From NCBI RefSeq assembly GCF_053078305.1, contig NZ_CP166879.1: a DNA stretch of 64,000 nucleotides. One strand, 5' to 3'. Made by a program: the position numbers and the translations under genes. Shown here piece by piece: positions 62,508 to 64,000 of the stretch. Position 1 is the first letter of the stretch; each line of letters opens with the position of its first letter. The notes beneath the pieces are model-generated. The model worked only from the letters and a program-made list of their open reading frames with translations, had not been told where the DNA came from and ran no database searches.

Positions 62508-63299
62508 TTAATTTCGGGAGAAGCTTAAGGTTGCCACATCGACAGTTTCATCACACAGACTCTTGTCCGGAAATACTTTCTTATTTTTGACTTTAGCCAG
62601 CCATTGCCCGACATGAAGGGAAGGTACAGTGATGATACCGTCCTCATTACTTACAAAGGTAAGTTCTGCTTTATGAGCCGAATGTTTATGCTCAGCTGCA
62701 TGGGTATGACGGGATGATTTCAGATAACTGACAGAGTCAAGCTCCAGAGTAGCTCCGGCAAGCGGGGATGTTTTATACAGAACTTTCAGCTTCACATCTT
62801 CACCGAAACGACTGATATCGGATAATGGAATGATTTCAAGCTCATCCCCTGTTGGAGACTGATAGAGTTGTGCTGGCATCTGCTGTTCACCAGGAATAAA
62901 AGATTTTGCATATTTAGTCACAAACTCACAGTATGCCACATCATTTCTGCCCTCCCGACTGACAGGCTTCCATCCTGACGAGGTTCTCGACCAGTATCCC
63001 GGTTTCATTTTCGTTGACAGAACGTAGCTATTACCGTTGCCTGCAGACTCAGTTTTATAGACATAATCCGTGGACGTTGGCTTCAGCGTTATTATCTCTT
63101 TCCCGTTATAAAGCCGGGGATTTTCAAAGAAATTCCTTCTGTCAGGAATTGTGCCCTTTGAGGGGAAATTATGACCATAACCAATCTCTGCGGTAACGTT
63201 GTTCTCTGCCTGTTTACCGGTAATCCAGACATCGTGGGCCAGGGCATGCTCCGATGCTGTCAGACAAAGAGCTAAGATATAGCCTGTATTTTTCATCAT
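62508..63299 (-). CDS. Periplasmic protein with signal peptide (DUF4198-like, TonB-receptor-associated)
   Basis: 263 aa; signal peptide then HDVW; 18 bp downstream of a TonB-dependent receptor gene; family call tentative. Confidence 0.5.
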   Translation of the reverse strand: MMKNTGYILALCLTASEHALAHDVWITGKQAENNVTAEIGYGHNFPSKGTIPDRRNFFENPRLYNGKEIITLKPTSTDYVYKTESAGNGNSYVLSTKMKPGYWSRTSSGWKPVSREGRNDVAYCEFVTKYAKSFIPGEQQMPAQLYQSPTGDELEIIPLSDISRFGEDVKLKVLYKTSPLAGATLELDSVSYLKSSRHTHAAEHKHSAHKAELTFVSNEDGIITVPSLHVGQWLAKVKNKKVFPDKSLCDETVDVATLSFSRN

Positions 63300-63317
63300 G
63301 ATTTATTTCCTGCGAGG

Positions 63318-64000
63318 TTACCACTGATAACGGGTATAAAGACTGACAGTTCTGCCTGAAAGCGGCACACCTTTGCCATTCATGGCAAGCTTGTTGAAGG
63401 CATTATCCAGAGTCACTGATGCCTCAAAGCCTTTAACACTTACAGGCTTATAAGACAGTGAAAAGGAATGTACGGCATAGCCAGCCTGATGGGGATCGCC
63501 TTTTTTCACATGCGTGGCTGCTGCCGAAAGTTCAGCGCGCCATCCGGCAGAAACTCCTCCATGACCAACAGGTATACTGATGTCACTGATGAGTGTGTCA
63601 GGATTGCCGGAGCCCAGCCATTCCCTGCTACTGGCATCCATACTTTCCGTGCGGTTATAAGAAAGCATCCAGTCAAAATAATCAGACTGGTAATTACCCT
63701 GCATATCCCATCCCCAGATACGGGCCCGGGATACATTATAAGAATAAGAACGCATCCGTTTCATATCCACGCGCGTGGCAATATAGTTTCTGGCATCCGT
63801 TCCGAAATATCCGCCTTTCAACTGCAGCCGATCATTGTCTGTAAGCAGGCCGTCCAGTTGAATACCTGCGCCAATCTCACGGGTGATGTTATTTTCTGGT
63901 TTCAGATTAAGGTTAGGTACCCAGTAATTGGGTTTACCCTTGCGGTAAAAATGTACATCATCCCTGTACATTTCTGCCATTGTGGGGGCACGGAATGCAG
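63318..64000 (-). CDS. TonB-dependent outer-membrane receptor, 3' part (5' end beyond window)
   Basis: ORF open to window end; C-terminal beta-barrel region ending in the aromatic terminus …SLYTRYQW typical of TonB-dependent receptors. Confidence 0.7.
   Translation of the reverse strand, partial: AFRAPTMAEMYRDDVHFYRKGKPNYWVPNLNLKPENNITREIGAGIQLDGLLTDNDRLQLKGGYFGTDARNYIATRVDMKRMRSYSYNVSRARIWGWDMQGNYQSDYFDWMLSYNRTESMDASSREWLGSGNPDTLISDISIPVGHGGVSAGWRAELSAAATHVKKGDPHQAGYAVHSFSLSYKPVSVKGFEASVTLDNAFNKLAMNGKGVPLSGRTVSLYTRYQW

Follow-up and report, generated by a model that had tools for sequence, protein, structure and literature searches.

The end of the 64,000-nt stretch of contig NZ_CP166879.1 analyzed here (the window) carries the last part of a gene for a TonB-dependent receptor and, downstream of it, a gene for a DUF4198 protein, which raises the question of what such a pair brings into the cell. 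The original prediction named metal or siderophore uptake as the likely role and regarded the identity of the receptor as impossible to assess. The answer favored below, at a rough probability of 60% and as judged from sequence, is that both genes make up a mobile module for zinc acquisition, about 2.9 kb in size, that has a promoter of its own and is repressed by Zur. In near-identical genomes, this shared promoter carries a Zur box but lacks a Fur box, and the pair is thus probably an uncharacterized zinc-scavenging module of pathogenic E. coli. No description of the E. coli receptor-DUF4198 pair was found in the literature covered, subscription journals being mostly outside this coverage.

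Gene layout and 3' boundary

The receptor and its downstream DUF4198-like partner are indeed both encoded on the minus strand at the proposed positions (PF00593 and TIGR01785 for the receptor, PF10670 for its partner), and the start of the receptor gene does fall outside the window, about 1288 nt beyond its end. The following features were assigned:

62417-62507, minus strand: downstream edge of the conserved module (blastn between oriented loci)
62469-62508, minus strand: stable hairpin right after the DUF4198 stop codon, without a U tract (folding against shuffles)
62508-63299, minus strand: DUF4198 gene, 263 aa, predicted periplasmic metal-binding protein and Zcp homologue (PF10670, E 6e-26)
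62553-62930, minus strand: Cys124 (62928-62930) and Cys249 (62553-62555), predicted disulfide, aligned with Zcp C127 and C250
62670-62708, minus strand: His-rich loop HTHAAEHKHSAHK, aa 198-210 (alignment and model)
63171-63173, minus strand: His43 of the GYGH motif (mature His22), predicted second metal ligand (His in 97 of 109 homologues)
63234-63299, minus strand: signal peptide, aa 1-21 (...HALA), followed by His22 (63234-63236), predicted mature N-terminus
63300-63317, minus strand: intergenic spacer of 18 nt with ribosome-binding site AGGAAA, read from the sequence
63318-64000, minus strand: 3' end of the receptor gene, last 226 codons and stop (PF00593, E 3e-19; TIGR01785, E 1e-43)
63903-63995, minus strand: heme-receptor signature FRAP...His...PNLNL at the edge of the window (aligned to ChuA 9dhe and ShuA 3fhh)
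63903-63917, minus strand: PNLNL, the NPNL-like box of this signature
63951-63953, minus strand: His equivalent to ChuA/ShuA His420, conserved in seven of seven clade receptors
63984-63995, minus strand: FRAP part of the signature (codon coordinates worked out from the sequence)

The spacer CCTCGCAGGAAATAAATC places AGGAAA 7 nt ahead of the DUF4198 ATG, and the gap of merely 18 nt between the two genes suggests one transcript. Loci of Salmonella, Klebsiella and other E. coli show the same order from receptor to DUF4198 and a similarly tight spacing; throughout the enterobacterial subfamily, the two genes are without exception neighbors, separated by 14-19 nt, and travel as one module. At the other end of the operon, the hairpin at 62469-62508 folds with -18.7 kcal/mol (z-score -3.4, with none of 200 shuffles equally stable) and is a probable transcript end or mRNA stabilizer. 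A simple terminator scan made no call for the hairpin after the operon, and Rfam returned zero matches for positions 55000-64000 of the window. The UTI89 copy is also trailed by a similar hairpin sequence. The point at which homology to another copy ends is about 62488 for an IncF plasmid, about 62456 for plasmid p113Kb and 62417 for UTI89.

A receptor of the ChuA/ShuA family

By sequence, the receptor is a member of the ChuA/ShuA heme-receptor family. The part inside the window (63318-64000, minus strand) is stop-free in translation up to the edge, ends with the usual aromatic residue (...TRYQW) and covers positions 240-435 of 436 in the PF00593 profile of the 22-strand barrel (E 3e-19). Contrary to the earlier view, the identity of the receptor can be assessed, as the complete gene is available in closely matching records, of which NZ_AP045171.1 has six differences in 2101 nt (99.7% identity); the gene comprises 1971 nt and encodes 656 aa. 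The full-length homologue that was scored (L001:13419-15389, minus strand) passes both TIGR01785 (TonB-hemin; 426.9 bits, cutoff 316.85) and TIGR01786 (heme/hemoglobin receptor; 330.4 bits, cutoff 323.75); the fragment in the window reaches 149.4 bits on TIGR01785 because it is truncated. Receptor homology is likewise borne out by alignment, with ChuA (E 5e-167) and ShuA (E 6e-163) as the closest solved structures.

ChuA of E. coli and ShuA of Shigella dysenteriae (9DHE, 9DIS, 3FHH) share the length class of the receptor, and identity to ChuA is 42% over the whole length, including plug and barrel. The TonB box DTITVVA, read from the 99.7% identical copy, aligns with ETMTVTA of ChuA, and the plug domain (PF07715), which falls outside the window for this receptor, was called in homologous loci. 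The FRAP...His...NPNL signature (ShuA His420) is present inside the window (63903-63995) as FRAPTMAEMYRDDVHFYRKGKPNYWVPNLNL. In contrast to ChuA and ShuA, however, the receptor has a Lys at the position of the plug-apex His86, which we take from the ShuA literature to be the plug heme ligand; the alignment revealed this replacement in all seven clade receptors examined. It further differs from these two receptors in being unlinked to chu-type heme transport and degradation genes, in its pairing with a DUF4198 gene, in its mobility on plasmids and genomic islands, and in a promoter that harbors a Zur box in place of a Fur box. Hma of CFT073 is presumably larger than the receptor and was hence set aside as its identity.

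As a working analogy, we propose the neisserial ZnuD/TdfJ (4RDR), which, like the receptor, is TonB-dependent and under a Zur box. ZnuD is a Zur-regulated TonB-dependent zinc receptor that is related to heme receptors (PMC2895646, PMC4557270). Yet, the receptor is no orthologue of ZnuD, since merely the plug region aligns to 4RDR (E 5e-5) and the score on NF038289 is 45.8 (cutoff 950). It also lacks the His/Asp-rich surface loops of ZnuD: no such loop was found among its 656 residues, which include 11 His, with three in the richest 15-residue stretch. Between diverged alleles, a dN/dS of 0.11-0.15 indicates purifying selection on the receptor.

The shared promoter and the case for heme

Located beyond the window, the Zur box is known from records with 94-99.7% identity over the module. 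Its sequence, AAAATGTTATGTTATAACATTGC, spans the interval from 44 to 22 nt ahead of the receptor start codon (L001:15411-15433) and has three mismatches to GAAATGTTATANTATAACATTTC, the same count being two for the K-12 znuA/C box and four for the zinT box. The site also matches RNNNYRNNRYNNYRNNNY. The ykgM box of K-12 and the hlyII box of J96, the latter a Zur binder in EMSA (PMC5916954), have exactly the same 16-nt core, TGTTATGTTATAACAT. Both sequence and position of the box are conserved: it recurs at -44 in four further E. coli-type alleles and CFT073, as well as, with two mismatches, in the S. enterica orthologues, whose receptor is just 52% identical. The Klebsiella plasmid copy retains only a half-site (seven mismatches), so that the full box is present in six of the seven loci compared. 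Zur-like boxes were also found upstream of more distant DUF4198 homologues, including another receptor-DUF4198 pair. When 455 kb of DNA were scanned, all matches with at most four mismatches corresponded to znuA/C, zinT or receptor-promoter sites, and there were none inside the 64-kb window or its shuffles. A simple sigma-70 scan made no promoter call over the Zur box, where TTGCAC-16 nt-TATAAC was read by hand as the promoter. The promoter fragment of UTI89 has been recovered in a urine-induction screen, but expression in urine was lower by RT-qPCR.

These data bear on the possibility that the pair encodes a second heme/hemoglobin receptor for iron, ChuA- or Hma-like, with the DUF4198 protein as a periplasmic heme or iron accessory. 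Such a role is suggested by the receptor itself, which passes TIGR01785 and TIGR01786, shares 42% identity with ChuA (E 5e-167) and retains FRAP, His420 and the NPNL-like box. In addition, DUF4198 genes of Avibacterium, Alteromonas and Caulobacter respond to iron starvation, and neisserial ZnuD supported heme use upon expression in E. coli. The regulation of the pair speaks for another substrate, as no Fur box was found within 300 nt upstream in the seven loci (the best candidates differ at 7-9 of 19 positions), six of which carry the full Zur box. The exchange of His86 for Lys extends across the clade, and neither a heme ABC transporter nor a heme-degrading gene was seen to travel with the module in the loci compared. 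Taken together, we regard iron supply via heme as an unlikely function of the pair.

The DUF4198 protein

The partner of the receptor is predicted to be an exported periplasmic metal binder. It matches the full PF10670 profile (positions 1-208 of 209; 92.3 bits, cutoff 34) and is homologous to Zcp (9MHI, E 1e-24). Its AlphaFold model (pLDDT 94.7) retrieved Zcp (9MHJ; E 3e-19, TM 0.80) as well as IsDUF4198 (9GCB; E 1e-11, TM 0.72-0.81) in Foldseek, the sequence match to 9GCB being marginal (E 0.049). Zcp (NGO1049 of Neisseria gonorrhoeae; 9MHI-9MHO) is a Zur-regulated, periplasmic zinc-capture protein with a Zur box upstream of its gene (PMC12663993), and its cluster 1 features zinc binding and a homodimer. 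The two proteins have the family, the three-layer beta-sandwich fold and the disulfide cysteines in common. C127 and C250 form a disulfide in the Zcp crystal, and the cysteines of the corresponding pair are found in 85/109 and 87/109 DUF4198 homologues. In contrast, the Zcp zinc triad H29/H31/H142 is absent from the DUF4198 protein, with Gln or a gap, and Gln/Glu, at the aligned positions. The protein instead possesses His43, which is aligned with a Glu of Zcp, and an internal His-rich loop. Moreover, its gene is in an operon with the receptor, whereas zcp is monocistronic.

Signal-peptide cleavage is predicted between ...ALA and HDVW, with Ala21 in 99 and His22 in 107 of 109 family members. 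Every sequence in alignment A1 has the resulting mature His1 (His22 of the precursor). Strands 2-10 and 13-21 follow each other directly in the model, and if these were paired as a hairpin, mature His1 would be placed opposite mature His22, i.e. His43 of the GYGH motif. In the close subfamily, which includes the Klebsiella and Salmonella proteins, the His-rich loop is retained but differs in sequence, and the aligned positions are largely gapped in the wider DUF4198 family (109 homologues). The loop also falls where model confidence is lowest (pLDDT 74-78). As for the receptor, dN/dS between diverged alleles (0.13-0.25) indicates purifying selection, and both genes are intact.

Distribution and neighborhood

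The two-gene module (about 2.9 kb) was matched in 1151 of 5426 complete E. coli genomes (21%), and 779 of the 1205 matched places were on plasmids, with IncF-type replicons in the plasmid copies examined. It is present in UPEC (CFT073, c1265-c1266, and UTI89) as well as in STEC islands. A locus scan with alignment A2 yielded 11 loci from Salmonella diarizonae and from MAGs of Synergistota and Deltaproteobacteria. In the stretch analyzed here, the setting is a virulence-type island with adhesins. Two candidate plasmid homologues were discarded: pUTI89 carries a ChaN-TonB-receptor arrangement (cjrABC) and not the receptor-DUF4198 pair, and the 'heme/hemoglobin receptor' of pRS218 did not resolve to the receptor-DUF4198 cassette.

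In UTI89 and CFT073, a CobW/COG0523 gene is found in the neighborhood, outside of the conserved module. Its product is ZigA-like (187 bits, cutoff 600) and has SITS in place of the CxCC motif that we assume to be expected of COG0523 proteins, and no Zur box of its own was detected. This neighbor counts as weak support for a zinc role.

Alternatives to zinc import

Control by zinc does not need to imply zinc import. The DUF4198 protein could buffer periplasmic zinc, while the receptor imports something else that is needed at zinc scarcity or docks a host zinc-binding protein. This would be compatible with a receptor that is devoid of an obvious zinc-binding loop, as well as with those DUF4198 homologues that are monocistronic and have no receptor gene alongside. 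The constant adjacency of the enterobacterial pair (14-19 nt) and its mobility as one module, however, argue for a joint task of the two proteins, and such a division of labor is considered improbable.

Nickel or cobalt could be taken up instead, with the TonB-dependent receptor cooperating with a NikK-like DUF4198 binding protein. The prototype, IsDUF4198 from Ideonella sakaiensis (9GCB), shares with the DUF4198 protein the beta-sandwich, which fits the model with TM 0.72-0.81, the N-terminal His, and a second His about 20 residues on, a motif found across the family. These residues are the nickel ligands of IsDUF4198 (Kd 18 nM), and genes of this family often reside beside those for TonB receptors and NikR-family regulators (PMC12537917). 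IsDUF4198 is nevertheless a distant relative (E 0.049, against E 1e-24 for Zcp) that lacks the His-rich loop and is tied to nickel and NikR rather than to Zur. Furthermore, the receptor promoter contains no NikR operator (GTATGA-N16-TCATAC) and instead the site of Zur, and no nik or cbi genes adjoin the module, which leaves nickel or cobalt uptake with little probability.

An Iha/IreA-type siderophore receptor borne by the island, as implied by the originally suggested comparators, has merely the virulence-type island with adhesins in its favor and can be dismissed, given scores of 79.8 bits against 1197 on the IreA model and 95.9 against 223.5 on TIGR01783, the passing of TIGR01785 and TIGR01786 instead, and the absence of any siderophore receptor among the close PDB matches. 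Metal uptake, the other half of that proposal, stands, and the Zur box, the missing Fur box and the Zcp-homologous partner direct it toward zinc.

Proposed function of the module

In the zinc-acquisition module favored here, the promoter would be repressed by zinc-loaded Zur and turned on under zinc starvation, for example, upon zinc sequestration by the host. The receptor, a presumed TonB-energized transporter from the ChuA/ShuA lineage in which Lys has taken the place of the heme ligand His86 at the plug apex, would then bring zinc, either free or carrier-bound, through the outer membrane. Following export of the DUF4198 protein to the periplasm, cleavage of the signal peptide would expose the N-terminal His, which could capture the incoming metal together with His43 (GYGH) and the flexible His-rich loop. 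Conceivably, the captured metal is buffered in the periplasm, as by Zcp, or handed to ZnuA/ZnuBC. In this scheme, the binding of Zur to the promoter in vivo, the choice of zinc as substrate and the transfer between both proteins are inferences.

Several observations run counter to a zinc function. The receptor still passes the heme/hemoglobin models and keeps FRAP-His420-NPNL, has no ZnuD-like His/Asp-rich loop and scores 45.8 bits against 950 on the ZnuD model, and the DUF4198 protein has none of the three zinc ligands of Zcp. In addition, the His1/His pair in IsDUF4198 binds nickel best (PMC12537917), and zinc uptake does not require Zcp. The half-site in the Klebsiella plasmid copy, the missing sigma-70 call over the box, the reading of this box from other records and the lower expression in urine count on the same side. 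The most far-reaching version, in which the module represents the first dedicated TonB-dependent zinc importer of E. coli, i.e. a former heme receptor that lost its plug His, captured a Zur promoter and works with a periplasmic acceptor with an N-terminal His, is put forward tentatively, at somewhat less than even odds.

Significance

Zinc is known to enter E. coli via porins, via ZnuABC and ZupT at the inner membrane and, in some strains, via yersiniabactin/FyuA. How zinc passes the outer membrane under host zinc starvation is unsettled, and the module provides a concrete candidate. If the assignment is true, its spread to 21% of the genomes, mostly on plasmids and including UPEC and STEC islands, suggests that it helps pathogenic lineages against zinc sequestration by the host. 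The annotation as 'hemoglobin/transferrin/lactoferrin family receptor' should be taken with caution, because both the regulation and the absence of the plug ligand indicate a different metal. The pairing of receptor and partner also offers a natural context for working out the roles of DUF4198 proteins, and the module is carried by the model strains CFT073 and UTI89.

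The receptor and its DUF4198 partner

The end of the window carries the 3′ part of a TonB-dependent receptor gene and, downstream of it, a DUF4198 gene:

63318-64000, minus strand: receptor 3′ end (last 226 residues), an open frame running off the window edge
63951-63953, minus strand: receptor His equivalent to ShuA/ChuA His420
62508-63299, minus strand: DUF4198 gene, 263 aa

This arrangement, already noticed in the original prediction, is borne out by profile matches of the receptor fragment to PF00593 (E 3e-19, profile positions 240-435 of 436) and TIGR01785 'TonB-hemin' (E 1e-43), and of the DUF4198 protein to the whole of PF10670 (E 6e-26). 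The receptor stop and the DUF4198 start are 18 nt apart, with an AGGAAA ribosome-binding site ahead of the latter, and a stable hairpin (-18.7 kcal/mol, z -3.4) lies 3′ of the DUF4198 stop codon. An Rfam scan of 55000-64000 gave no match.

The window's last 2.1 kb are matched in 1151 of 5426 complete E. coli genomes, 779 of the 1205 matched places being plasmid. Closest, with six differences in 2101 nt (99.7% identity), are records of STEC-type isolates from humans and animals. While the receptor's identity had been considered beyond assessment, the complete 656-aa protein and its upstream region can be read from one such record, NZ_AP045171.1; extrapolated to window numbering, the start codon of its gene would fall near 65288. 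The suggested comparison with Iha/IreA-type receptors rules out such an identity (79.8 bits with the IreA model, whose cutoff is 1197), as well as that of a siderophore receptor (95.9 bits, cutoff 223.5). Hence, of the predicted "metal or siderophore uptake cargo" the siderophore part falls, while the metal part gains support from a Zur box and a Zcp-related partner.

The main rival reading is that the protein still is a heme receptor. It exceeds the cutoff of TIGR01785 (426.9 bits against 316.85) and that of TIGR01786, both of them models of heme/hemoglobin receptors; its nearest solved structures are ChuA (E 5e-167, 42% identity) and ShuA (E 6e-163), and the FRAP-His-NPNL signature, which includes the His420 equivalent, is retained (63903-63995). 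However, of the heme ligands of ShuA, which we take to be His86 and His420, the plug-apex His86 is replaced by Lys in all seven aligned clade receptors (five E. coli-type alleles, an 82% identical Klebsiella plasmid copy and a 52% identical Salmonella copy). Linked heme genes are likewise absent, and in the 300 nt ahead of the receptor gene the best Fur-box match differs at 7-9 of 19 positions.

Among solved structures, the DUF4198 protein is closest to Zcp from Neisseria gonorrhoeae (9MHI, E 1e-24), which was the first of its family to be characterised. Zcp is controlled by Zur and forms a periplasmic homodimer in which each subunit binds a single Zn via H29, H31 and H142; the protein, stapled by a C127-C250 disulfide, is dispensable for uptake (PMC12663993). 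A confident AlphaFold model of the E. coli protein (88 homologues, pLDDT 94.7) matches both Zcp (TM 0.80) and IsDUF4198 from Ideonella sakaiensis, a Ni-binding protein (9GCB, TM 0.72-0.81). Both disulfide cysteines of Zcp are kept, whereas none of its three Zn ligands is. Instead, the protein shares two family-wide histidines, one directly after the ...ALA signal-peptidase site (107/109 homologues) and one in a GYGH motif (97/109), where Zcp is an exception with Glu. Their equivalents in IsDUF4198, His1 and His18, coordinate Ni through three nitrogens (PMC12537917). These ligands suggest a nickel role, which is however without support from regulation, no NikR operator being found in the promoter, or from adjacent genes. 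The enterobacterial subfamily additionally features a His-rich loop, HTHAAEHKHSAHK in the window's protein, the sole low-confidence part of the model.

A candidate Zur box in the receptor promoter

Beyond the window's end, in near-identical genomes, a candidate Zur box (AAAATGTTATGTTATAACATTGC) is located 44 to 22 nt before the receptor ATG. It differs at 3 positions from GAAATGTTATANTATAACATTTC, the consensus that Panina et al. 2003 reportedly gave for Zur sites of gamma-proteobacteria; counted likewise, the genuine boxes of K-12 have 2 (znuA/znuC) and 4 (zinT) mismatches. Its 16-nt core TGTTATGTTATAACAT is the same as in the box upstream of K-12 ykgM and in the J96 hlyII box, to which Zur binds in EMSA; the candidate box also matches the published RNNNYRNNRYNNYRNNNY pattern (PMC5916954). 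By manual reading it overlaps a TTGCAC-16 nt-TATAAC promoter; a simple consensus scan made no call there.

The box recurs at -44 in two plasmid alleles (L002, L004), UTI89, CFT073 and a divergent E. coli lineage (L015), and orthologues in Salmonella enterica have it with just 2 mismatches; the Klebsiella plasmid copy has a half-site only. All matches with up to 4 mismatches in 455 kb of fetched DNA are znuA/C, zinT or receptor-promoter boxes, and the 64-kb window and its shuffles hold none at up to 3. Zur-like boxes also precede more distant DUF4198 homologues, among them another receptor-DUF4198 pair (L018) and two monocistronic genes (L019, L021).

Taken together, the pair is best read, from its sequence, as a Zur-repressed zinc-acquisition operon. 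The receptor would originate from the heme-receptor lineage and have lost one heme ligand, while its periplasmic partner may capture the metal by the N-terminal His, His43 and the His-rich loop, to be buffered or handed to ZnuA. A likeness to ZnuD plus Zcp is proposed for the mode of working; the pair belongs to neither class, since the receptor scores 45.8 bits against the ZnuD model (cutoff 950), no His/Asp-rich loops were found in its sequence, and the partner lacks the Zcp triad.

On a metagenome contig (L023:2670-7708), a distant homologue of the DUF4198 protein (32% identity) is flanked by a TonB-dependent receptor of 757 aa and an ArsP_1 permease + DUF1980 pair, so that other taxa may have a more complete route from the outer to the inner membrane. 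A Zur box of the gamma-proteobacterial type was not found at this locus.

Mobility and gene neighbourhoods

The copies are homologous from ~110 nt ahead of the receptor ATG until 20-90 nt beyond the stop codon of the DUF4198 gene, an end that falls between 62488 and 62417 in the window. Flanking sequences are unrelated and IS-rich. Values of dN/dS of 0.11-0.25 indicate purifying selection on both genes. On IncF-type plasmids the module lies near a RepFIB-type replication gene, in Salmonella it is chromosomal and adjoins a sialidase gene, and in UTI89 and CFT073 it adjoins the iro cluster, the CFT073 island being named the serX island (PMC3855560). UPEC chromosomes have, outside the conserved module, a CobW/COG0523 GTPase gene after the pair (L005:13577-14776 in UTI89; L035:37574-38773, c1267, in CFT073). 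Its product best matches the zinc chaperone ZigA (187 bits, below the cutoff of 600) and reads SITS in place of the CxCC motif expected in COG0523 proteins. Transposon mutants in c1267 ('cobW') showed reduced fitness when CFT073 was screened in systemic infection (fitness factor 8.85; PMC3855560).

In the window, the module sits beside IbrA/IbrB-like genes on an adhesin-bearing island:

7801-10323, minus strand: 840-aa ORF adjoining the autotransporter gene, no Pfam match at E 1e-5
10438-13566, minus strand: AIDA-type autotransporter
38976-48832, plus strand: type I secretion set and 1614-aa protein, whole region
38976-40244, plus strand: outer-membrane factor, type I secretion
40249-42396, plus strand: ABC exporter, type I secretion
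42441-43703, plus strand: HlyD-type adaptor, type I secretion
49228-50970, plus strand: YadA-type trimeric autotransporter adhesin
52067-53680, plus strand: IS66 transposase
53756-55021, plus strand: further 421-aa ORF
57848-59131, plus strand: IbrA-like protein (PAPS reductase + DUF3440)
59320-61107, plus strand: NERD + UvrD-type helicase
61289-61918, minus strand: IbrB-like protein (weak ParB_N match)

The 1614-aa protein downstream of the secretion set has Big_13 Ig-like repeats and is presumably its adhesin-like secreted substrate. A homologous genome's annotation places two YadA-like proteins in the YadA region. The helicase gene separates the IbrA-like and IbrB-like genes; in three other E. 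coli contigs (L015-L017) an IbrA/IbrB-like pair directly follows the receptor-DUF4198 cassette. A stretch of ~500 nt between the IbrB-like gene and the module edge (61919-62416) is AT-rich, seems to be non-coding and has no counterpart at the UTI89 copy.

Implications

A literature search found no published description of the E. coli pair. A urine-induction screen picked up the promoter fragment from UTI89 (UTI89_C1129), but RT-qPCR did not confirm this (PMC5404293). The finding is real, and in the terms of the original prediction it is ordinary island cargo. Based on its regulation and residue changes, the pair plausibly constitutes a widespread, uncharacterised zinc-uptake module, an idea that can be put to a direct test in standard UPEC strains.
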